Made by a program: the position numbers and the translations under genes. Below, piece by piece: positions 2,158 to 14,226 of a stretch of 35,141 bases of DNA. How positions within the stretch are numbered: the first letter of the stretch is position 1; the number at the start of each line of letters is the position of its first letter. The stretch is from a virus: positions 1-35,141 of the IMG/VR virus record IMGVR_UViG_3300025902_000010; one strand, given 5' to 3'. The notes under the pieces are model-generated. The model did not search any database. It was given only the letters and a program-made list of their open reading frames with translations, and was not told where the DNA came from.

Positions 2158-3882
2158 TTAGCTCCTGTCTATTGAGGTTATTTCGCCTCTGGAATTTCTA
2201 TGCACGACCAATTTGCCTTCCTTTTCAGGAACGTTCACGTTCACTGTTGGCGGTTCCTGCTGTGGAACGGATACATTCACCACCGGAGCAGGAACAGTGA
2301 CGTTGATAGGCTGCTCTGGTATGTTCACCACCGGCGCCGCCACGTTCACAATCGGAACGGGTTGCTCTGGAACGTTGACATTGACAATTGGCGCCGGCTG
2401 TTCTGGAACGGTAATGTTAATCTGTGGCATGTCCATTTTGAATACTCTCCCCGCCGGTTTCTGTTCCGGATCCGGTTCAGGTTCTGCTTTCACCGCTTCA
2501 ATAGCGTTTCGCAGTTCGAAAAGCAAATCCGCCATGCCGCTGTGTTCATACGTGCCATCGAATACGCTCTTGACCTCTTCCTCGTCATGGCACAGTTTCA
2601 ACGCCTCATGAATCTCCGCCTGCATTCCCGCCGGTATGATCTCGCTCTCGAATGAGCAGTCCGCCGCTTTGCCGTCCTTCACCCTCTTCAGCGCTTTCTT
2701 TTGCCACTTTCCCAATTCATCATCAAGCGGATTAGGCGCCGGTTCCTGTGCCTCTGGTGCTACGCTGATAATCGGTTCAGGTTCAGGCTTCGGTGCCAGT
2801 GGATCAACCCCTTCAGGTACATCAATGCCCAGCATTTCAATGACCACGAGTGGATTAAGACCGGCATTGACATAAGTTGCGAATGCGTTCGCCCGCTCTA
2901 CCTCATCCTCCTGGAAAATGTCCATTTCGTCAAAGGCAAATTCAAATTCCATCCCCATGGCATTGAGCAATTGCCGGTTCAACGCGGACTCAAGCAACCT
3001 TGCGCGTGGTCTGATAACATCCTGCCAGAAGCCCATGCGGTGCGAGTCGGCTGAAGCGTAGTTGTCGTCACCCATAAACATTGTCACTGGAATACCAAAG
3101 GCGTTAGCGATACTCGAGGTCGCTTGCTGGTAAAGTTCCGGCATGGTCATCTTGTCGAGGTCTTGACTGACAACTTCAGGGGTTAGTTTTGTCCTCGTGG
3201 CCAGCACGCGCCAGGCGTTGCCGACTCCGCTTGCTAACTTGCTAAAGAAGTTTTGAATCCGTTTTGTTTCATCCTCTACCAGTGTGCCATCGGCTGAAAT
3301 GAGGATGATCGGCATTGCGCCGTTCTCGAAGAATCTGCTTGCAAACCGCGTCTGGAAGTTCATCAGCGCCGCGTCGTTGAGGCACGCCTGCACCGTCGAG
3401 TTTCCGCTTGTCATGTCATCGGAGTATGAAAACTCCTTGATGTAAATAATGTCCGACTCCGGCCATACCTTTCCCGCCTGCGAGAAGGTAAGCCCGTACG
3501 CCGCGTCGTAATGCACGGCAACTGTGAAGGGGTTGAGCCGTTGCAGGTCAAGTATTCGCACCTTGTTGCGGAGTTTCAGGATGGTTGCGATTCCAGCCCC
3601 AAGCAGGTCGGCTTCGGTCTTCCAAATCAAATCCCGCATCTCACACGGGAACGGCCAGTCGACTTCCGTTTCCCCCTTGTAGATGTGGATAGGCACGCTC
3701 GAAATAGCGTCGCATCTCATCTTGACCGCGCGGTAAATAAGCGGGACTTGCGAGTACGCCTCTGCTACCGAACTAATCGAATTGGTAAAGTTGCCCGCGT
3801 CCGCCAATGCCTGCTGTTGCCAGGCTGGAAGCGTGACCAGCGCCTTCGTTGCTTTTTGCATGGTTGATAATTTCATAATCAC
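2158..3882 (-). CDS. portal protein (574 aa) with repetitive C-terminal extension
   Basis: Lies directly after TerL (ATGA overlap at 3879-3882). Size and HK97-type portal N-region (SQVPLIYRAVKMRCDAISSVPIHIY) fit. The C-terminus carries VNVxVPEQPxP repeats. Confidence 0.85.
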   Translation of the reverse strand: MIMKLSTMQKATKALVTLPAWQQQALADAGNFTNSISSVAEAYSQVPLIYRAVKMRCDAISSVPIHIYKGETEVDWPFPCEMRDLIWKTEADLLGAGIATILKLRNKVRILDLQRLNPFTVAVHYDAAYGLTFSQAGKVWPESDIIYIKEFSYSDDMTSGNSTVQACLNDAALMNFQTRFASRFFENGAMPIILISADGTLVEDETKRIQNFFSKLASGVGNAWRVLATRTKLTPEVVSQDLDKMTMPELYQQATSSIANAFGIPVTMFMGDDNYASADSHRMGFWQDVIRPRARLLESALNRQLLNAMGMEFEFAFDEMDIFQEDEVERANAFATYVNAGLNPLVVIEMLGIDVPEGVDPLAPKPEPEPIISVAPEAQEPAPNPLDDELGKWQKKALKRVKDGKAADCSFESEIIPAGMQAEIHEALKLCHDEEEVKSVFDGTYEHSGMADLLFELRNAIEAVKAEPEPDPEQKPAGRVFKMDMPQINITVPEQPAPIVNVNVPEQPVPIVNVAAPVVNIPEQPINVTVPAPVVNVSVPQQEPPTVNVNVPEKEGKLVVHRNSRGEITSIDRS

Positions 3883-5075
3883 GCTCCGAATAGAATCACG
3901 GGTTGCGCCCTATCTACCGCGTACCAGGCGAGGGCAAGTGACATGACACAATCGTCGTGCTGCCCTTCCGGCGCGCTGTAGGTAAAATTCCCGCTGTTTG
4001 TCTTTTTGCTCTCAAAACTCAAGAGTTCCCCCACTAATACGGGATCGTCAATAATCTTTATCTGGCCGTGTTCAAACGCGGATTGCAGGCTCTGGATAAT
4101 GCCGTGCTTCGTTGCGTTGGTCGTGGTGAACGGCTGAATATTCATGCCCCTGTTTTGCAGGTGGTCAATGACTCCCTGCCCGATCGAGTTCGCCTCGATC
4201 ACCATGCCGGTTAGTCCCCACTTCGCATAACACGCCGCGATCCTGTCCTCGAGCACCGGGTAATCCACACGGTTGAAGCGGTCAATGGCGACCATCTCTT
4301 TTGTCTGCGCGTCGAGTACGGTGATAACCGTGTAATCCACGCTTGCCGCCACGTCTACCCCTCCCACGTACTGCCCCGGCTGTGGCTCTCGCGGTTCAAG
4401 GCGTGCCGCGTCGTGTACCCGCCGGAAGACAGCGCCCTCACTATCCACAAACTCCGCCAGGTATTCCTGCCTGAAAATGATCTCCGGCAATTCAGCCCGC
4501 GCCGCTTCGATCTCACCCGCAGGCATAAACGGGTTCGCGCTTGTCGGGTAGGTGAACGATGACCAATCCGGCTCTACTCCACCCTTGCGGTGAATATCCC
4601 AAAACCAGTTACGCCCGCGCGGGGTCGAGATGAACAGCGCCCTCCCTAACCTGTCTGACAACGCCGGTCTAATTGCCTCTATCCACGCCTCCGGCATAAT
4701 GTACGCCGCTTCATCCATCACAACGAAATCAAGCCCTTCACCGCGTAGCGCGTCCGGGTTGTCAGCCGATCTAACAGCCACAAGCCCGCCGCCGGGTATA
4801 ACGACTTCCCTCTCCGCCTTTCGTATCACAGCGCCGGGAATCCGGCTCGCCATTTGCCGGAGGGGTCGCCAGCCCACGTTGCTCATTTTGTAAGTCGGGC
4901 TGATCCACCAGGCGCGCTTTCCCTCGTTCGCAACCGCTAAGCATTCGAGGACTGCCAGCCGCGTCTTACCGAACCTACGCCCCGCAGATACCACCCGGAA
5001 ACGGGAATCGCACGAGTTGATAATGTACTGCGCGTGATGTAACTCGAAAGTAGCGTCAATCAGTATCACCCTCAA
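3879..5075 (-). CDS. terL: terminase large subunit (398 aa)
   Basis: Walker A GRRFGKTR and Walker B DFVVMDEAA, with a C-terminal nuclease half. Located between TerS and portal. The annotated start is TTG; GTG at 5069 is an alternative. Confidence 0.9.
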   Translation of the reverse strand: MRVILIDATFELHHAQYIINSCDSRFRVVSAGRRFGKTRLAVLECLAVANEGKRAWWISPTYKMSNVGWRPLRQMASRIPGAVIRKAEREVVIPGGGLVAVRSADNPDALRGEGLDFVVMDEAAYIMPEAWIEAIRPALSDRLGRALFISTPRGRNWFWDIHRKGGVEPDWSSFTYPTSANPFMPAGEIEAARAELPEIIFRQEYLAEFVDSEGAVFRRVHDAARLEPREPQPGQYVGGVDVAASVDYTVITVLDAQTKEMVAIDRFNRVDYPVLEDRIAACYAKWGLTGMVIEANSIGQGVIDHLQNRGMNIQPFTTTNATKHGIIQSLQSAFEHGQIKIIDDPVLVGELLSFESKKTNSGNFTYSAPEGQHDDCVMSLALAWYAVDRAQPVILFGA

Positions 5076-5397
5076 CGTCTACCCAGCGAATATTCATCGG
5101 CTTTCCATCCGCCCCCGTGACCTCCTGCCGCTCGACGTAACCGCGATTCTTGCCAAGCGATTTCAGCGTGAGCGTGACCGCCCACGGCTCGCCGTTCATC
5201 ACCGCCTGCTCAAGTTTCAGTTCCGCCTTGTCAATAAGTTTGCCGCGATACGAGTCAATAACATCCTGTACGTGCGCGTTCTTTTCAGCCCTGCGGTAAA
5301 TCGTATGAGGTGAACATCCAAGCGCGTTCGCGGCAAGGTAAATCATGCCGTGAGTTTCTTCCAGCGCCTTGATGATGTCCTCTGTACGGTATGCCAT
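5056..5397 (-). CDS. terS: terminase small subunit (113 aa), HTH type
   Basis: Immediately upstream of and overlapping terL. N-terminal HTH (IYLAANALGCSPHTIYRRAEKN) and a WAVTLTLKSLGKNRGYVERQE segment typical of small terminases. Confidence 0.6.
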   Translation of the reverse strand: MAYRTEDIIKALEETHGMIYLAANALGCSPHTIYRRAEKNAHVQDVIDSYRGKLIDKAELKLEQAVMNGEPWAVTLTLKSLGKNRGYVERQEVTGADGKPMNIRWVDVEGDTD

Positions 5398-6051
5398 TTA
5401 TGTCACTTCACTTTCAAGGAGCGGACGGGTCGGACTTGCACCGCCAGTTTCCCGATTGGAGTCGGGTGCGTTATCGATTTCGCCTCGTCCGCGCTTTGGA
5501 TATGGTTGTCTAAGTGGTTCAATTTGTTTTTTCATTTCGTTATCAAGCGGATAAAGATATTTATGTTTTGCTGGCGCTTTTCTTTTCGGATATCCCGACA
5601 TTCGATTAGCGTGAACATCGTTTCTCCACCGACCGTTAATAAGCATTTGCTGAACTATACTAACCCCAACATAAACCCAATTAGACGCCTGATAAATACC
5701 CCCCAAGTGTCCTTGCTCTGTATCCGCAAAAGAAACAAGTAAACGTAAACTTGGGTTTTTGTTGACAATCATTTTTATTGACCTTGCTATCATCTTAGTA
5801 ACCGGATTTTCATGTTCCCTTAAGGAAATTCTTTTTAGTTCTGTGACTTCAGTTTGTTTTAATCCAAACAAAGAACCCAAGTGCGGACTAATTGAATACC
5901 CATAAATAAACGAACCAATATATTTGTCATTTTCCCAAACGCCTATATAATTATTTCTTCCGCTCGGCATTCTCTTTGAATAATGCCAATGCTCAACTGC
6001 ATATTTAGCCGCCTCGTGGCTACACCAATCAAGGTGTAAACTCATGTCCAC
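5398..6051 (-). CDS. GNAT-fold, Mom-like acyltransferase candidate (217 aa); possible DNA-modification enzyme
   Basis: EHWHYSKRMP...IGVWENDKYIGSFIYG...LVSFADTEQGHLGGIYQASNWVYVG matches my memory of the phage Mom / Mom-like family pattern (HHYS..., SFAD..GH.G.IY.A.NW.Y.G). No DPPY/NPPY methyltransferase motif. Not verified by search. Confidence 0.45.
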   Translation of the reverse strand: MDMSLHLDWCSHEAAKYAVEHWHYSKRMPSGRNNYIGVWENDKYIGSFIYGYSISPHLGSLFGLKQTEVTELKRISLREHENPVTKMIARSIKMIVNKNPSLRLLVSFADTEQGHLGGIYQASNWVYVGVSIVQQMLINGRWRNDVHANRMSGYPKRKAPAKHKYLYPLDNEMKKQIEPLRQPYPKRGRGEIDNAPDSNRETGGASPTRPLLESEVT

Positions 6052-6541
6052 ACTCCGGGCAAATAACCTTTTTCTTTTGGTCTAACCTGACCTGTTCGTC
6101 AATTCCAACTGGCTCAAAGTCAGGCGGTATGATTCCCTCTTTAGTCGCTATCTCACTAATAAGCGCCTGCACCTGCTCATTATCAGACTGTATCCCCCGC
6201 ATCAAATCATCCAGCTTCGCCCTGTCTGTTGCCGCCATAGCGGCTATCGGGTCAAGCGTTGACAGCACCAGCGCCTCCTCTTCCTCGCTCAAGTCAACGT
6301 ATTTCACGGGGATGGTCTTAGTGCCTTCCCTTGCCGCTAACTGACAGCGTAAATGCCCGTCCACGAGGTGACCGGTTCGCTGGTTGATAATGACTTCCTG
6401 CACCCAGCCGACTTCTTCGAGTACGCCCTTGAGCGCGTTCTGCTGGTTAAGCGGATGCACCCGCCAATTACGCGGGTTAAAAAGTATTTGGTCAAGCGGT
6501 TCAACGCCTGACCCTATGATGCGGTTTTTATACTCCGTCAA
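6029..6541 (-). CDS. ParB-like nuclease domain protein with C-terminal zinc ribbon (170 aa)
   Basis: PLDQILFNPRNWRVHP...VIINQRTGHLVDGHLRCQLA is a ParB N-terminal (ParBc) signature. C-terminal CPECGHEF. Confidence 0.75.
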   Translation of the reverse strand: MTEYKNRIIGSGVEPLDQILFNPRNWRVHPLNQQNALKGVLEEVGWVQEVIINQRTGHLVDGHLRCQLAAREGTKTIPVKYVDLSEEEEALVLSTLDPIAAMAATDRAKLDDLMRGIQSDNEQVQALISEIATKEGIIPPDFEPVGIDEQVRLDQKKKVICPECGHEFTP

Positions 6542-6727
6542 CTATCCAACTCCCCCGCCCGCCTTCTCACCGGCGTCCTCGATGGCGATACCGGCAATCA
6601 CGACGCCAATCAGCGCGGCAATGGTCTGCCAGATTTCTTCCGGCACGTCAAAGTAAAACAACACAACCGCCTGAATAACACCGAACACCGCCAGCCAAAA
6701 CTTGCGTGATCTCAAAAGTCCTGCCAT
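6542..6727 (-). CDS. small membrane protein (61 aa)
   Basis: Two hydrophobic segments (FWLAVFGVIQAVVLFYF; IAALIGVVIAGIAI). TAATG overlap with the upstream gene. Confidence 0.6.
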   Translation of the reverse strand: MAGLLRSRKFWLAVFGVIQAVVLFYFDVPEEIWQTIAALIGVVIAGIAIEDAGEKAGGGVG

Positions 6728-6927
6728 TAGTACACTCCTAAATCTGTGAAAGTGATTTCGTGTTCATCAATACGGCGCTCTTGTCTGAGTTCACGTCTCA
6801 TGTCATTGACGTAGAATTTTAGCCATGCCGGCCACTCCGCCCTATCAGCGCCGTATATTGATAGACATTCAGCGCATAACTCGTTCTTTCCAACGATGTT
6901 TTTTCCGCATACGCATTTATGGTGCAT
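6727..6927 (-). CDS. small Cys-rich zinc-finger protein (66 aa)
   Basis: HKCVCGKN...CAEC motif. RBS GAGGA upstream of the ATG. Confidence 0.6.
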   Translation of the reverse strand: MHHKCVCGKNIVGKNELCAECLSIYGADRAEWPAWLKFYVNDMRRELRQERRIDEHEITFTDLGVY

Positions 6928-6963
6928 GATGTCCTCAATATCTATAAGGCACGAAATAGACGT

Positions 6964-7167
6964 TTAATCACAATATTCCCTGTAAAATCTTCGAAATTGC
7001 TTCATCCAGTTGCATATCGTGTTTCTATGAACCCCCAACGCGTCAGCCACCTCCTGCTGCGTGTACCCCCGCATAAACAGGAGCGCTGCCCTCCTGTGTG
7101 TTTCAGGGAGGGCAGCAAATACCAAGTCCATGTCAAACTTGAGTTCGCACTTTTCAACTTCCGTCAT
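6964..7167 (-). CDS. sigma-70 region-4-like / LuxR-type HTH protein (67 aa), candidate late-gene regulator
   Basis: LPETHRRAALLFMRGYTQQEVADALGVHRNTICNWM resembles sigma region 4.2 HTH. Confidence 0.55.
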   Translation of the reverse strand: MTEVEKCELKFDMDLVFAALPETHRRAALLFMRGYTQQEVADALGVHRNTICNWMKQFRRFYREYCD

Positions 7168-7427
7168 TCAGCCTCCGGCGGATTAGGTAATGGCATCCAA
7201 TGAGTGACGTAATCGTCATCGCACATCCAAACGGGCTCTCCGTTTTCTACCCGTAATAGTCTGTCTGTTAGATAATCGCTGTGGTCATCAAATAAAAGCA
7301 CTTCTACGCCAGCTTCCGGCAGTCTCTCGCTCACCGGAATCCATCCCGCCTTGAAATACTCCCCGCACTCCGCGCATTGAACATCCTCAAGCCGTGACGT
7401 GCCACACTTGCAAACGATTTCAGTCAT
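7164..7427 (-). CDS. DUF551-like protein (87 aa)
   Basis: WIPVSERLPE ... VTHWMPLPNPPE, a characteristic DUF551 pattern, plus an N-terminal CxxC..CxxC. Confidence 0.6.
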   Translation of the reverse strand: MTEIVCKCGTSRLEDVQCAECGEYFKAGWIPVSERLPEAGVEVLLFDDHSDYLTDRLLRVENGEPVWMCDDDYVTHWMPLPNPPEAE

Positions 7428-7636
7428 CAGATATAACCTCCGCTAATCAAATCATCCGCGTCCGCCTTGTATTCTTCTATCAGGCGTTCTTTATGCAGTT
7501 TCACAGATTGTCTTACCTGCTCCGCTGAATAATGGCAGTCACGCGCAATACTCTCAAACGACGCGCCCTTGTCATGCAGGTTGCCCCACCCCGCGTCACG
7601 CTGTCTATTCCACCATCCATACGCCTTGTATTTCAT
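7427..7636 (-). CDS. hypothetical protein (69 aa), possible HTH
   Basis: ORF track. TGATG overlap with the downstream gene. Confidence 0.6.
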   Translation of the reverse strand: MKYKAYGWWNRQRDAGWGNLHDKGASFESIARDCHYSAEQVRQSVKLHKERLIEEYKADADDLISGGYI

Positions 7637-7956
7637 TCATCACACCTCCCAAGATAATCACAGATCAGCCTGATGGCCGTGCCGTCCTCGACCATCTCAC
7701 GGTCAAACTGGTAGTACCTGTACCCCATCGCCTGCGCTCCGTTGGCCTTCTCGTAGTCGCGGTGTATTCCGGCGTAACTGGTATGCCCGCGTGACGCAAC
7801 GTGGGTCATGCCATTCACCTCCACAATGAGGCGCGATTCCGGCCAGCAAAAGTCAGCCAACCAGCGGCGGCTACTGTGAAAACGGTACTGCCGTTTCGGT
7901 TCGGGTACGTCGTGAGCGCGGAGTTCAAGCGCCAGCACATCTTCGAGTTCGCTCAT
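7633..7956 (-). CDS. DUF559 / Vsr-like PD-(D/E)XK endonuclease (107 aa from MSELEDV)
   Basis: RRWLADFCWPESRLIVEVNG...H...DYEKAN...GYRYYQF fits the DUF559 endonuclease pattern. I moved the start to the ATG at 7956, which forms an ATGA overlap with the 39-aa ORF upstream. Confidence 0.55.
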   Translation of the reverse strand: MSELEDVLALELRAHDVPEPKRQYRFHSSRRWLADFCWPESRLIVEVNGMTHVASRGHTSYAGIHRDYEKANGAQAMGYRYYQFDREMVEDGTAIRLICDYLGRCDE

Positions 7957-8072
7957 TCTTCCGGCTCCGGTCTGCCAGAGCATTGTTGATTGCCGCGCCA
8001 CCTAAAACACATAATCCCGATTAGAACGACAATCGCTATAATAACGACTGGATCAACCGTTATAGTTATCAT
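7953..8072 (-). CDS. 39-aa single-pass membrane peptide (below the ORF-track length cutoff)
   Basis: Hand translation: MITITVDPVVIIAIVVLIGIMCFRWRGNQQCSGRPEPEE. RBS GGAGAAGGG. ATGA overlaps at both ends (8069-8072 and 7953-7956). Confidence 0.45.
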   Translation of the reverse strand: MITITVDPVVIIAIVVLIGIMCFRWRGNQQCSGRPEPEE

Positions 8073-8425
8073 CCCTTCTCCTTCCACGCCAGCCACGCCT
8101 CACAGATTGCGCGTTGAGGAGTGTCTGATTCTACTTCTACAATTTCGTAAGAGTTTTGAATCCACTCGCAACCCCATTTGTTCAGGGTGGGATAATATTG
8201 CAAATTAACGTCAGCCTCTTTCATCTCCTCCAGCAACTCACCGCATAACCGCCAATCGTGGGTGTAGTCGGGAGGGAAAGAGAAATACCAAAACCGACTA
8301 TCCACATCGGATTTAGTCGGTCTCTGCCACATTGGGACAGCAGGCGGGGGTAAGGCTACCCACCCCTTTGCCTTGAATATCGCCTCGTTCACCTGTTCGT
8401 CAGTCCATCCAGAATAGTCAGTCAT
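8069..8425 (-). CDS. hypothetical protein (118 aa)
   Basis: ORF track. ATGA coupling on both sides. Confidence 0.65.
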   Translation of the reverse strand: MTDYSGWTDEQVNEAIFKAKGWVALPPPAVPMWQRPTKSDVDSRFWYFSFPPDYTHDWRLCGELLEEMKEADVNLQYYPTLNKWGCEWIQNSYEIVEVESDTPQRAICEAWLAWKEKG

Positions 8426-9150
8426 TCCAACTCCTTCATCAGCGCACGGTGTAGGGTGATGGGACAGTCGGGGGCATGGTCAATCTGTTCACCAAATCTC
8501 GCCCAGTGATGACAGCCACCACGACATACCCACTCATGAGGAAATGCCTCAATAACGTAATTAGACGCCAACCTCTCCCCGTCCTCTTTCAGCCTTGCGA
8601 TAATCTCGTCACGGCGGGCTATCTCTTCCCTCGCTGACCTGTCAATGTTGCATAGTTTTTTCTCGGTTAACGCCAGCTCCTCGTCACGGCTGGCGAGTTT
8701 ATGTTTTTGCTCCATACATACCGTGTTAGCGTAATGTAACTCGTTTATTCTGCGGGCGAGTTCGGCTTCTACCGCCTCCACATAATCAATCAATGTCGTT
8801 ACCCCAATTGCGCTAACATCCGCTGGGTATGTTTTGGCAAGCGTGCGAAAATCTTCGTCAAGATACAGTTCGTCTTTATAATAATCAGGATTAGTATTTT
8901 CAACGGATTGCCCTGTTTTAATATCTGTTAAAACATCCTGTGTCATTGAAACATCAGATTTTGCCGGCTGGCGTGACACAATATATCTCGCAAAGTCCTC
9001 ACCGCACTCTTTGCACTCGTACAATTCAAATTCAGCAGTATGAATGCACTCTACGTATTTCTCACAGTTCGGGCAAAAAACGATAGGCATCCTGTGTTCC
9101 ACAATCATTTCAATATGCTGTTTCAGCCGCTTGCGGTCTTCTGGTTTCAT
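8422..9150 (-). CDS. zinc-ribbon / coiled-coil protein (242 aa)
   Basis: CPNC...CKEC N-terminal ribbon, central coiled coil, C-terminal GGCHHW...HAPDC motif shared with the next gene. Confidence 0.65.
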   Translation of the reverse strand: MKPEDRKRLKQHIEMIVEHRMPIVFCPNCEKYVECIHTAEFELYECKECGEDFARYIVSRQPAKSDVSMTQDVLTDIKTGQSVENTNPDYYKDELYLDEDFRTLAKTYPADVSAIGVTTLIDYVEAVEAELARRINELHYANTVCMEQKHKLASRDEELALTEKKLCNIDRSAREEIARRDEIIARLKEDGERLASNYVIEAFPHEWVCRGGCHHWARFGEQIDHAPDCPITLHRALMKELE

Positions 9151-10738: not shown

Positions 10739-11086
10739 CTAAAACGGGTATTCCTGATCCGGCGCGTCCACCTTGAACCCGTCACCCTGCACGATCTCAC
10801 GCGCCACCACCTCGAAGCCCGCCGCGTGTTCTGCGCCGTCCTTGTCCGTCCACTTCCTCGGCGTTTTCGCCTGACCCGTGATCGTGACAGTCGCGCCCTT
10901 TTCGAGTGCGGAGTTCGCTTCGGCTAACTGCTCCCACGCTTCACAGCGTACCCATGCCCTCTCTTTGTAGCCCGCTTCCTTGTTACCCCCCGTGTACATC
11001 CCCAGCGAGAAGGTGAGTACCGCTTTTCCTTCCGGCGTGTACCTGGATTCCGGCTTGCCGACAATTCCTGTCAGTTTGATGTTCAT
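10739..11086 (-). CDS. ssb: single-stranded DNA-binding protein (115 aa)
   Basis: OB-fold-like MNIKLTGIVGKPESRYTPEGKAVLTFSL... and an acidic C-terminal tail ending DQEYPF. Start at 11086 (RBS AAGAGGAG; ATGA overlap), not the track start 11158. Confidence 0.85.
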   Translation of the reverse strand: MNIKLTGIVGKPESRYTPEGKAVLTFSLGMYTGGNKEAGYKERAWVRCEAWEQLAEANSALEKGATVTITGQAKTPRKWTDKDGAEHAAGFEVVAREIVQGDGFKVDAPDQEYPF

Positions 11087-11208
11087 AGTCTCCTCTTTAC
11101 ACTCTCGATTACCAGCCCGACCAGCAGCGCCACGATACCGGCTGCCATAACGACACACCCCACAATCCAGATAATCGCGTATAACGTGAAGTCTCCGGTT
11201 AGTTCCAT
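11083..11208 (-). CDS. 41-aa membrane peptide
   Basis: Hand translation: MELTGDFTLYAIIWIVGCVVMAAGIVALLVGLVIESVKRRL. TGATG and ATGA overlaps with neighbours. Confidence 0.45.
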   Translation of the reverse strand: MELTGDFTLYAIIWIVGCVVMAAGIVALLVGLVIESVKRRL

Positions 11209-11384
11209 CACGCCCCGCCTCCGTAGTGTTCGATGTACCTTGCCACCTGCCGCGCGATCTCCGGGCAGCCGTTATCCCGTGCCATGATGTACAGCGCGTC
11301 CCAACTCTCGCCGTCCCATAATCCCGCGTTGAGTTCGCGCATCAAAAGGTCGCGGACTGCGATTACCTCAAATAATGCTGTCAT
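11208..11384 (-). CDS. hypothetical protein (58 aa)
   Basis: Hand translation: MTALFEVIAVRDLLMRELNAGLWDGESWDALYIMARDNGCPEIARQVARYIEHYGGGA. ATGA overlap at 11381-11384. Confidence 0.5.
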   Translation of the reverse strand: MTALFEVIAVRDLLMRELNAGLWDGESWDALYIMARDNGCPEIARQVARYIEHYGGGA

Positions 11385-11929
11385 TTCCCCGCCTCCAGTT
11401 GTTTTGTCAACTTTCCTACCGCTTCCAGGTACTTTGCGCTCACCTGTTTCACGTCAGGTAAAAGCCGGGTGTCTTCCTCAGCCCGGTTCACGAGTGAGTC
11501 GTAAATCTTGAAAAAGTGCGCCCGGTCAACGGCTATGTTTTCCGACTCCAAAAGGTGACGGTAGCCGATCACCTTGACGGCGCGCTCCACAAGGGGATGC
11601 GAGTATTCCGGGACTCGCGCGTTGAACTGGTAGCGGTAGTATTCCCCGCATAAGTTGACCTGCCTCATTGCGTCTTCCCACGCCTCGTATGCCGTAGGGA
11701 TGTTATGCGCCCCGGTCATTAGTTTGTGCGCCATTTCGCGCCATTCCGCGACGGACGGGAAGAATTTACTTTCAGCCATGATCTGATGCGCCGCCGCTTC
11801 CAGAATTTCACCGGGAATATCAGCCAGTAACTTAGCGTAGAGTTTCACCGAGTCAGCCGATAATTCATAGCGCGGGTAGGCGTGCGCCATAACGCCCATA
11901 ATCATTGAAACCGTTTCAGAAGATGCCAC
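11381..11929 (-). CDS. G39P-like replicative-helicase loader (182 aa)
   Basis: Follows the replisome organizer, as in SPP1-type modules. The AHAYPRYELSADSVKLYAKLLADIP...FFPSVAEWRE pattern resembles the G39P family. Confidence 0.5.
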   Translation of the reverse strand: MASSETVSMIMGVMAHAYPRYELSADSVKLYAKLLADIPGEILEAAAHQIMAESKFFPSVAEWREMAHKLMTGAHNIPTAYEAWEDAMRQVNLCGEYYRYQFNARVPEYSHPLVERAVKVIGYRHLLESENIAVDRAHFFKIYDSLVNRAEEDTRLLPDVKQVSAKYLEAVGKLTKQLEAGK

Positions 11930-13584: not shown

Positions 13585-14226
13585 TTACCCGCCGTTGCGA
13601 GCGGATAGAATTGTTTGTGCTGCAGTCAGTTTGCGCTCCTGCTCATCCGTGCGCTTCGGCATTTTCGCCAGCGCGTTTGCCATGTTCGAGAGTGTCTCGG
13701 TATCAATGTCGCCGTATTTCACGCCGTCCCGGTTCGTCTCGGCAAGCGCAAACTCAAGCGTCATTTTTCCATTGGCCTTCTGCGGTTCCGGTTTCGCCTG
13801 ATAAGGTTTTTCCGGCCGTTCGTGGTTCTTCGCCGGCGCGTTGCCGTCTGTGTCCTCGTCCGTTGCCAGTCCCACGATCGCTCCGAAGGAATAGCGACGG
13901 AGATAGGTTATAATTGACCCTGCAACCTGTGCCAAAGATTTTCCCTTTTCGTCGCCGAGCGGGAGTGAGATCGTGTCCTCGATCCATTGCCCGCTCGTGT
14001 GTAACAACGTGGTGGTAACTCCGATCTGACCGTCTACGCTCACCGGCTGTTGGCTGATGCTCAGGCCGTGTTTGGCGAGCACCGGTGACGCTACCCGGAT
14101 CATCTCCGCCAGGTCAGCGTACTTGTTTTTCAGGAAGGGATTGACCGCGTTCATCGGTACTGCGGGCATTTCAGCCTGTGCCTGTGCTAATGCTGCTGCT
14201 AACTTGTCTAACTGTTCTGACTTCAT
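13585..14226 (-). CDS. erf: ERF-family single-strand annealing protein (213 aa)
   Basis: NPFLKNKYADLAEMIRVASPVLAKHGLSISQ ... ITYLRRYSFGAIVGL are ERF superfamily hallmarks. Confidence 0.8.
   Translation of the reverse strand: MKSEQLDKLAAALAQAQAEMPAVPMNAVNPFLKNKYADLAEMIRVASPVLAKHGLSISQQPVSVDGQIGVTTTLLHTSGQWIEDTISLPLGDEKGKSLAQVAGSIITYLRRYSFGAIVGLATDEDTDGNAPAKNHERPEKPYQAKPEPQKANGKMTLEFALAETNRDGVKYGDIDTETLSNMANALAKMPKRTDEQERKLTAAQTILSARNGG

Follow-up and report, generated by a model that had tools for sequence, protein, structure and literature searches.

The virus record IMGVR_UViG_3300025902_000010 of IMG/VR (positions 1 to 35,141; hereafter the window, i.e., the whole 35,141-nucleotide stretch that was analyzed) carries, at the head of its packaging genes, what is probably a three-component DNA-hypermodification cassette: a gene for a ParB-like protein, an overlapping gene for an enzyme of the Mom family, and an RNA that would act as glycyl donor. 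The two protein genes had been singled out in an original prediction, made from the sequence alone, as a candidate DNA-modification and anti-restriction pair just upstream of the terminase, an interpretation that our analysis supports in part. The third component, a 73-nt tRNA-Gly-like element lying inside the 3' end of mom, had been missed there, and we consider it the most informative feature of the locus. A more specific reading, which we hold only tentatively, is that in a large group of phages this RNA would be a private glycine-accepting tRNA mimic that has lost what EF-Tu and the ribosome require and serves only to feed Mom, and that the ParB-fold protein would be an NTPase tethering the enzyme before packaging.

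A Mom-family enzyme and its ParB-like partner

Both open reading frames (ORFs) were found where they had been predicted, on the minus strand, and all the motifs quoted for them are present. The components of the cassette are the following:

6029-6541 (-), ParB/Srx-fold protein of 170 aa with a TTG start, assigned by PHROG matches and fold
6032-6127 (-), C-terminal tail of the ParB-like protein (residues 139-170, PDFEP..DEQxRLD..CPECGHEF), with a single CxxC at codons 6050-6061
5398-6045 (-), Mom-family GNAT of 215 aa from the ATG at 6045, assigned by PF25680 and by the fold match to 8bv8
5420-5492 (-), tRNA-Gly-like RNA element of 73 nt inside the 3' end of mom, assigned by Rfam RF00005 and by our covariance model R1

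The longest mom ORF (5398-6051) starts with GTG and codes for 217 aa, the form originally described. The likely start is the ATG at 6045, preceded by GGAG at 6053-6056, with a 215-aa product that is also the one reported by public gene calls (P0001, 100% identity). With this start the overlap with the ParB-like ORF is 17 nt, whereas the 23 nt given before hold for the GTG. The identification of the protein as a Mom-family GNAT was right and, judged by sequence profiles and a structure model, unambiguous. The window protein matches Pfam Mom (PF25680) with 143 bits against a cutoff of 27.1 (E=1.2e-41) and phrog_1384 at 1.2e-48, and the Mom of phage Mu (PDB 8bv8) was its only sequence match in the PDB. 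The AlphaFold model (pLDDT 84) also has 8bv8 as best match (TM 0.70/0.74, E=1e-13), followed by generic GNATs at ~1e-5, eight orders of magnitude weaker. The catalytic domain covers residues ~3-184 (5494-6039). Beyond it, the last ~30 residues are predicted to be disordered (pLDDT <50) and are conserved among close relatives; we considered a protein docking motif here and dropped it, since the tail is better explained as a translated tRNA-like element.

No Pfam match above threshold was found for the ParB-like protein, and a sequence search of the PDB gave nothing useful. Among the PHROGs it matched phrog_498 (5e-17), which is the N-terminal ParB domain of phage DNA methyltransferases, and phrog_620 (2.4e-16), and its relative P0147 carries PF02195. 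Its structure model (pLDDT 80.8) matched ParB N-domains at E values of 1e-6 to 1e-4, namely pNOB8 ParB-N, Caulobacter ParB, PadC, Noc, and B. subtilis ParB-CDP (5k5d, 7bm8, 6ryk, 7nfu, and 6sdk). By these profile and model matches the protein has the ParB/Srx N-terminal fold. The motifs NPRNxRxHP and DGHLR (of the latter D61, G62, H63, and R65) are invariant in 43 relatives, and the counterpart of DGHLR in DpdB, SspE, and ParB is the nucleotide-binding motif DGQQR/GxxR. In the model, the N-domain is followed only by three short helices and the CxxC tail, and neither a partition-type helix-turn-helix (HTH) nor a C-terminal dimerization domain is recognizable in the 170 residues. A role as partition protein was ruled out on these grounds; no ParA was seen among the genes scanned in the window.

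The protein had been called a ParB-like nuclease with a zinc ribbon. The ParB-like fold stands, but "nuclease" is only a historical domain name, with no observation here in favor of such an activity, and the ribbon is incomplete: there is a single CxxC knuckle (CPEC, residues 161-164), the second knuckle is absent, and the zinc-ribbon matches in Pfam remain below threshold (16 bits versus 30.8). This single knuckle is a regular feature of the family. Exactly one CxxC stands at the end of each of the 81 unique ParB partners linked to Mom, 69 of the 81 have the P(D/N)F motif, and the ~30-residue tail common to these 81 distinct proteins reads P(D/N)FxP..D(E/D)Q(G/P)(R/K)LD..CPxC(G)xxF. With such conservation we rejected the possibility that an insertion of mom had cut parB short and left it with half a zinc ribbon. 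We also dropped the idea that the tail is an analogue of Com, the regulator of mom in Mu, as it has only one CxxC and tail type C is without it.

To place the pair, 172 loci were gathered from IMG/VR and public assemblies and scored with hidden Markov models built from the window protein and its relatives, the clade being defined as the Moms with >240 bits. A ParB-like gene lies directly upstream, on the same strand, in 77 of the 79 evaluable nonredundant loci of this clade, and in none of the 61 loci of other Mom clades, including 48 Mu-like ones. The original prediction was right to treat the ParB-like gene as a partner: going by gene neighborhoods, it is a true, obligate upstream partner of this Mom clade and not a chance neighbor. 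The position at the head of the packaging genes is conserved as well: the first large ORF downstream of Mom was a large terminase in at least 44 of the 58 loci with enough sequence. The matches were to Terminase_6 (22), the lambda gpA type (12-13), the TerL_ATPase type (9), and Terminase_3 (7), so the module precedes unrelated packaging machines. In phage Appa and in the Arthrobacter phages, the ParB-Mom pair is kept together though it does not adjoin the terminase. For loci that combine ParB and terminase, a DNA modification linked to packaging has been predicted (Iyer et al. 2013, as summarized in PMC4738411), and the window has the same arrangement, with a ParB gene, a modifying enzyme, and a large terminase, all co-oriented.

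A Mom had been thought unusual for a phage of Gram-positive type, which our analysis does not support. The Mom relatives among GenBank phages are mostly from Listeria, Paenibacillus, Enterococcus, Arthrobacter, and Microbacterium phages, and database annotation already shows an adjacent or overlapping ParB-Mom pair in Enterococcus phage phiEf11, Microbacterium phage Appa, and three Arthrobacter phages (Zartrosa, Wyborn, and TaeYoung).

A search for homologues of the ParB-like protein recovered proteins whose first ~138 residues are 75-90% identical to those of the window and whose C-terminal tails differ. The downstream gene changes along with the type of tail:

CxxC tail: downstream, the Mom clade studied here (window, L009, L012)
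Second tail type: downstream, a DpdA-like homologue of queuine tRNA-ribosyltransferase (phrog_887, 8.5e-54) and a Vut_1/YhhQ-family gene, then terS, terL, and portal (L173-L175)
Third tail type: downstream, a 254-aa Mom of more Mu-like type (L176)
Fourth tail type: downstream, a PF20691 TAGT glycosyltransferase (L178, L179)
No tail: an N6/N4 methyltransferase fused to the ParB N-domain (570-aa protein in L174; P0221, P0226)

In the second type (L173:3141-4280 and L174:4644-6459), an N-domain ~80-90% identical to ours precedes a DpdA-like transglycosylase instead of Mom, and in L174 the Vut_1/YhhQ-family gene (a queuosine-precursor transporter) comes after the DpdA-like gene, right ahead of terS-terL. 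Such loci probably carry a form of the module devoted to 7-deazaguanine modification of DNA. In the fourth (L178:463-2155 and L179:157-1849), the N-domain has a long alternative tail and the TAGT follows, a third class of enzyme. Another variation was seen in L296 (1-1302), where the order is GNAT-like ORF, ParB-like ORF, tRNA-like element, and terS-like ORF, so that some variation in the gene order of the module does occur.

That tail and enzyme change together is our main argument for an enzyme-specific adaptor role of the tail. We propose, from these sequence comparisons, that the CxxC tail would be the one specific for Mom, through a physical contact between the two proteins. It could be argued instead that the ParB-like protein acts in packaging, marking pac or helping the terminase, or as a nuclease, in either case independently of Mom, and that the two genes are adjacent only because they share a position at the start of the late operon. 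ParB-domain genes beside terminases are indeed common in phages, several terminase families are found here, and the N-domain is far more conserved than Mom (up to 91% versus 69% identity to the nearest relatives), which would be expected of a component having a function of its own. Yet the pair survives away from the terminase in the Appa and Arthrobacter phages, its presence is split along the Mom clades, the tail follows the type of enzyme, the N-domain is found fused to methylases, and DpdB provides a precedent, all of which makes this independence very unlikely.

The base composition is in line with such an exchange of parts. The catalytic core of mom (5494-6045) has a GC content of 37.5% (31% at third codon positions), compared with 52-58% in its neighbors (52-59% when the tRNA-like segment is counted along with the ParB and terminase genes), and the DNA coding for the last ~30 residues of Mom has 59%, compared with the 37.5% of the rest of the gene. 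The dip over the Mom core is also present in relatives and fits a cassette exchanged between phages. This suggests that tail and enzyme are exchanged together, as one cassette lying between a conserved ParB N-domain on one side and the conserved RNA on the other.

The tRNA-Gly-like RNA family

The RNA element of the window lies wholly inside the 3' end of mom and is translated as Mom residues ~185-209. In a sensitive scan of positions 5250-5750, it matched the Rfam tRNA model RF00005 with 38.6 bits (gathering score 29, E=1.1e-6), and model R1 scores it at 73.6 bits; the cloverleaf has an energy of -27.1 kcal/mol versus -28.2 kcal/mol for the minimum free energy structure. ARAGORN did not call a tRNA in the window, and by ARAGORN and R1 the element is the only tRNA-like sequence of the 35-kb circular genome. 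It has an acceptor stem GCGGACG/CGUCCGC with discriminator U, a D-stem of 3 bp, an anticodon stem CCCGA/UCGGG closing a 6-nt loop (CUCCAA), and a T-arm GGCGG-UGCAAGU-CCG(A)CC with a bulged A in the stem and UGCAAGU as loop. The full glycine identity set is there (G1:C72, C2:G71, G3:C70, U73, and C35C36), and the decoding core is not, as shown by the 6-nt anticodon loop, A8, a D-loop without GG, and the UGC T-loop. The opposite strand (window 5419-5492 (+), and likewise L012:1439-1512 (-)) gave weak matches to the Rfam family Plastid-ycf2 (25-28 bits, gathering score 65.7), most likely a by-product of the antisense tRNA shape.

Model R1, a covariance model built from six copies of the element, found full-length matches in 78 of the 83 nonredundant loci of the ParB-linked Mom clade (E values 1e-4 to 1e-20), always on the mom strand and in or beside mom. 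In 70 of the 78 the element is wholly inside the mom ORF, which stays open through it, and the stop codon lies a median of 24.5 nt past the 3' end of the RNA; the remaining ones straddle the stop, follow it, or, in L171, sit between ParB and mom. There was no R1 match in the ParB loci with DpdA-like or TAGT enzymes, nor in Mu or phiEf11. ARAGORN run over all the loci gave 25 tRNAs, 12 of them tRNA-Gly and 10 with abnormal anticodon loops, almost all in or beside mom. Copies lacking annotation were found in Wyborn and TaeYoung, where they overlap the end of an "acetyltransferase" gene, and L111 has two tandem copies (1373-1438 and 1448-1514) at the end of mom.

The structure is conserved across the family. 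In the alignment of the 78 sequences, 93.5% of the pair cells are standard pairs, compared with 69% in shuffled and at most 43% in slid controls, and compensatory double changes occur in 17 of the 21 pairs. The first three acceptor pairs are fixed (G1:C72 in 77/77, C2:G71 in 77/77, and G3:C70 in 75/77) and pairs 4-7 covary freely; U73 is present in 75 of the 78 elements, and all of them have CC in the anticodon loop, usually as CCA. A CCA end is encoded after the discriminator in 36 copies (46%), against ~1.6% expected by chance. The positions fixed in this way are the glycine identity set of bacteria, and U73 and G71 are also the determinants read by TacT (PMC9976931). A consensus of 12 elements obtained with MAFFT/RNAalifold recovered only part of the cloverleaf, because of indels.

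The nucleotides that a tRNA needs for decoding and for its elbow are mostly lost in the family. A 7-nt anticodon loop with U33 is found in only 19 of the 78 elements, A8 in 69, a bulged A in the T-stem in 71, and a T-loop with UGC, UGU, CGC, or GGC rather than UUC (i.e., G55) in 54. The UGC/UGU T-loop is the mark of the nonproteogenic tRNAGly of staphylococci, whose binding to EF-Tu and the ribosome is poor and which supply the Fem transferases (PMC7826273). With a 6-nt loop lacking the standard U33 context, A8, G55, and a bulged T-stem, the phage RNA would likewise be expected to be poorly used by EF-Tu and the ribosome. The general tRNA model of Rfam gave no match in L012 and L107, and none in E-value mode on 11 loci; as far as these comparisons with Rfam go, the RNA family is not covered by that database and no other of its families matches convincingly.

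The association with Mom holds in the reciprocal direction. When IMG/VR was searched with a 26-nt pattern of the T-arm and acceptor alone, 117 new loci were returned, and in 104 of the 110 that could be evaluated the element has a Mom ORF as its neighbor on that strand. Among the six exceptions, at least three still have a Mom close by, either split by a frameshift, 1.3 kb upstream, or immediately downstream. Other arrangements of tRNA and mom lead in the same direction. Appa has a single canonical tRNA-Gly(CCC) 33 nt from mom on the opposite strand, and in Salinibacter phage B2_17 an annotated tRNA-Gly (81.9 bits with our model) comes 32 nt after the Mom-like gene, which is preceded by an ORF with the ParB CxxC tail (judged by eye). 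Two Mu-like loci (L053 and L060) have a tRNA-Gly(UCC) just upstream of mom, and a separate Mom clade without ParB (L070-L084) has a related element immediately upstream of mom (e.g., L070:4918-4990), for which ARAGORN gives a two-base "anticodon." In the short contig L268 (2-857), a C5 DNA methyltransferase is followed by a tRNA-like element and terL, with no Mom in the 784 nt available upstream, so the RNA may sometimes persist without an adjacent mom.

The sequence might nevertheless act only in cis, with Mom and ParB forming an anti-restriction pair that uses nothing but the host tRNAGly. The roles suggested for such an element are a site for RNase P/Z that splits the mom and terminase messages, a stability element, or a coupling or regulatory device like Com of Mu. 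Its location within an ORF whose stop abuts the next start codon fits this well, and so do the conserved phase of the ORF through the element (56 of 70), the many copies without canonical tRNA core nucleotides, the relatives missed by the Rfam tRNA model, and the fact that Mu regulates translation of mom through an RNA structure bound by Com (database annotation). A cis-acting structure, however, would have no need for invariant G1:C72, C2:G71, G3:C70, U73, and C35C36 amid covarying stems, nor for a CCA end so far above chance. Moreover, the canonical tRNA-Gly near mom in Appa and in Mu-like loci is found on either strand and on either side, which fits a product acting in trans. We therefore regard a purely cis-acting element as unlikely. 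Even with an RNA acting in trans, translational coupling to the next gene and ribosome control of RNA excision are possibilities for the open ORF.

Integration into tRNA genes is common among temperate phages, which then take along a portion of the tRNA. On that background we considered, and dropped, the idea of a remnant attP copied from a host tRNA-Gly gene, which is extremely improbable: the element is a full-length cloverleaf with both halves, its position inside mom is fixed across unrelated phages, and A8, G55, the T-stem bulge, and the odd loops are not expected from a functional host gene. No integrase-family match was seen either among the genes scanned, which cover part of the genome.

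Genomic setting of the cassette

Bases 1-95 of the window are repeated exactly at 35047-35141, indicating a circular assembly of a complete phage genome of ~35,046 bp (95-nt terminal overlap and 35,046 unique bases). The minus strand holds nearly all the genes, and the order around the cassette is ParB, Mom, a 113-aa HTH protein, terL, and portal, all co-oriented. The neighbors are the following:

6727-6927 (-), small ORF upstream of the ParB-like ORF
6542-6727 (-), small ORF directly upstream of the ParB-like ORF
5056-5397 (-), 113-aa HTH protein, putative small terminase (HTH_8 at 5e-5; phrog_4044, terS, at 0.006)
3879-5075 (-), large terminase subunit (Terminase_6N and Terminase_6C; phrog_2 at 6e-47)
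2158-3882 (-), portal protein (PF04860 Phage_portal and PF06074 Portal_Mu on the identical gene in L005)

The junctions are tight. A TAG is followed by the TTG of the ParB-like ORF at 6542/6541, and the mom stop TAA (5400-5398) directly precedes the ATG of the next gene (5397) with no spacer. Mom had been said to abut terS; the two genes do adjoin in this way, but the terS label rests on position and on weak matches. An equivalent small HTH gene sits between Mom and terL in relatives. Besides, a 67-aa HTH_23/Terminase_5-like protein is encoded at 6964-7167 (-), ~0.4 kb upstream of the ParB-like gene, and either this protein or the weakly supported 113-aa one may be the true small terminase. 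When the surroundings of the cassette were scanned with consensus patterns, nothing like a sigma-70 promoter turned up on the strand of the genes. One terminator-like hairpin was flagged, at 6513-6490 (-) in the 5' end of the ParB-like ORF, and in all the sites were no more numerous than expected by chance. With tight or overlapping junctions and no more sites than chance would give, co-transcription of the cassette with the packaging genes is plausible from the sequence, and the junctions are consistent with late expression.

Farther upstream of the module there is a 122-aa DUF559 protein (Vsr-like endonuclease fold) at 7633-8001 (-), and DUF559 and MTES_1575 endonucleases were also seen among the ORFs downstream of Mom in related loci. 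A G39P-like helicase loader (11381-11929 (-)), an ERF recombinase (13585-14226 (-)), and an SSB (10739-11158 (-)) support the replication module described in the original prediction and do not identify the host. Nor did a search of genome contigs with the ParB-like protein indicate the host, as it returned only five fragments of metagenome-assembled genomes, in Pseudomonadota, Thermoleophilia, and Planctomycetota bins. A megablast of window 3000-9000 against GenBank phages had no match.

A proposed mechanism and its implications

The Mom of Mu transfers glycine from Gly-tRNAGly to the N6 of adenine in double-stranded DNA; all the isoacceptors work, and recognition of the tRNA is thought to be centered on the acceptor end (PMC13219725). 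Since Mu Mom uses Gly-tRNAGly, we propose a dedicated glycyl-donor RNA here. The window Mom would take an aminoacyl group (most likely glycyl) from a charged donor of the tRNA type and attach it to the N6 of adenine in the double-stranded phage DNA. The 73-nt RNA would be excised from the mom transcript and charged by the host glycyl-tRNA synthetase (GlyRS), becoming a nondecoding donor reserved for Mom, and, being ignored by translation, it would allow the DNA to be modified without competing with late protein synthesis. The ParB/Srx-fold protein would engage DNA, probably in a nucleotide-dependent way like ParB and DpdB, and recruit or activate Mom through its CxxC tail, which would couple the modification to the DNA about to be packaged. 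The contact between ParB and Mom, the NTP dependence, the product, and the timing are all proposed on this basis.

The closest known system is Mu Mom itself (PDB 8bv8; PMC13219725). Both proteins belong to the same Pfam family and share the GNAT fold with an insertion, the substrate in both cases would be phage DNA, and the link with tRNA-Gly is indicated here by the co-encoded RNA. In contrast, the window gene is located at the head of the packaging genes and that of Mu at the end of the genome, and the clade of the window has an obligate ParB-like neighbor and its own tRNA-Gly-like gene within the ORF. Nor does the window have the com-mom operon of Mu, as there is no ORF like Com, a translational activator with a four-Cys zinc finger, and the upstream overlapping gene is ParB-like, with a single CxxC.

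How far the chemistry of Mu can be transferred depends on the active site. Of the residues found to matter for the activity of Mu Mom (H58, Y59, R111, S124, D149, R151, and Y159; PMC13219725), H58, Y59, R111, D149, and Y159 are invariant in 51 relatives of the window protein. Position 124 is Ser in 36 and Thr in 15 of them, with Thr in the window. The essential R151 is not conserved in the clade (Glu in the window), and neither is W48, a residue of the Mu dimer. The HTH-like insertion (Mu residues ~175-209), essential in Mu, has 24 residues in the window versus 37 in Mu and 24-43 within the clade. With R151 not conserved and a short insertion, the substrate or product may differ, and an enzyme making another modification, with another aminoacyl or acyl donor or another target, would also fit the low identity to Mu Mom (only ~25-27%), the Thr at position 124, and the variable length of an insertion proposed to read DNA. 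Against this, five of the seven mapped residues are invariant and the co-encoded RNA keeps specifically the identity elements for glycine, so a different product seems quite unlikely.

These two departures from Mu Mom are among several points that weigh against the mechanism as we propose it. Mu Mom acts as a single protein with the host tRNAGly, without ParB or a tRNA of its own (PMC13219725), and phiEf11 has ParB and Mom with no detectable tRNA-like element, so the RNA is not obligatory. Transcription of the RNA, its excision, its glycylation, and its use by Mom are proposed steps, and the window copy is followed by CCU, not CCA. A gathering-threshold run of Rfam on 20 related loci gave no tRNA match; the family is thus quite distant from canonical tRNA, and it cannot be taken for granted that GlyRS charges it. 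Covariation was counted on an alignment fitted to our own model, and since the ORF is kept open through the RNA, the peptide tail itself could be under selection. Finally, the ParB-like protein has no recognizable HTH and its NTPase activity is putative.

Parallels to the other components exist in known systems. The insertion of preQ0 into DNA by DpdA depends on the ParB-like protein DpdB and on its ATPase activity (PMC10164549). A ParB-fold protein with a DGxxR motif is thus paired there with a base-modifying enzyme, and close relatives of the window N-domain are paired with DpdA-like transglycosylases in L173 and L174. DpdB is, however, a larger protein ending in a helical domain, its enzyme differs from Mom in kind and in chemistry, and there is no RNA component. 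In the ParB-Tls loci and ParB-methyltransferase fusions (phrog_498; Iyer et al. 2013, as summarized in PMC4738411), a ParB N-domain is also found beside a modifying enzyme and a large terminase, and N-domains of the window type are fused to N6/N4 methylases (L174; P0221, P0226), whereas in the window ParB and enzyme are separate, overlapping genes, with a short CxxC tail, a Mom as enzyme, and an RNA gene. The staphylococcal tRNAGly used by FmhB, FemA, and FemB (PMC7826273) offer an analogy for the RNA, being glycine-accepting tRNAs diverted from translation to a tRNA-dependent transferase, with UGC/UGU instead of UUC in the T-loop and altered D and T arms. They are chromosomal and have a normal 7-nt anticodon loop, while the phage element is the more degenerate of the two, is contained in a protein-coding ORF, and would function in DNA modification. 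The GNAT toxins of the TacT/AtaT type (PMC9976931) read U73 and G71 of tRNAGly, which are invariant in the Mom-linked RNA; TacT acetylates the charged tRNA, while Mom uses it as donor.

Some of this was already known. Mom-like genes and ParB-Mom neighbors exist in database annotation, loci of DNA modification linked to ParB have been predicted computationally, and the dependence of Mom on tRNA was reported in 2023 (preprint) and 2026, with the enzyme presented as working by itself on the host tRNA pool. In our literature search, which did not cover Iyer et al. 2013/2009, neither a tRNA-Gly gene linked to mom or embedded in it nor an obligate ParB partner of a Mom clade was mentioned.

The window locus and the ~200 related loci suggest that the largest sampled clade of Mom works differently, with an obligate ParB-fold partner and a degenerate tRNA-Gly-like RNA. 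If true, this would be independent genomic support for the tRNA-dependent mechanism of Mom and the first virus-encoded nonproteogenic tRNA dedicated to DNA modification. It would represent a viral answer to the competition between translation and nonribosomal uses of aminoacyl-tRNA, parallel to the cell wall tRNAs of staphylococci, and a rare case in which an RNA gene and the protein that uses it share nucleotides. It would also mean that a family of RNAs, absent from Rfam, has been missed by standard tRNA finders and by annotators or misread as the tail of a protein, and it would support a general plug-in role of the N-domains of phage ParB proteins as carriers of different DNA-modifying enzymes (Mom, DpdA-like, TAGT, and methylases). 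The module is present in phages in culture, Salinibacter phage B2_17, Arthrobacter phages Wyborn, TaeYoung, and Zartrosa, and Microbacterium phage Appa, which makes these ideas directly testable.

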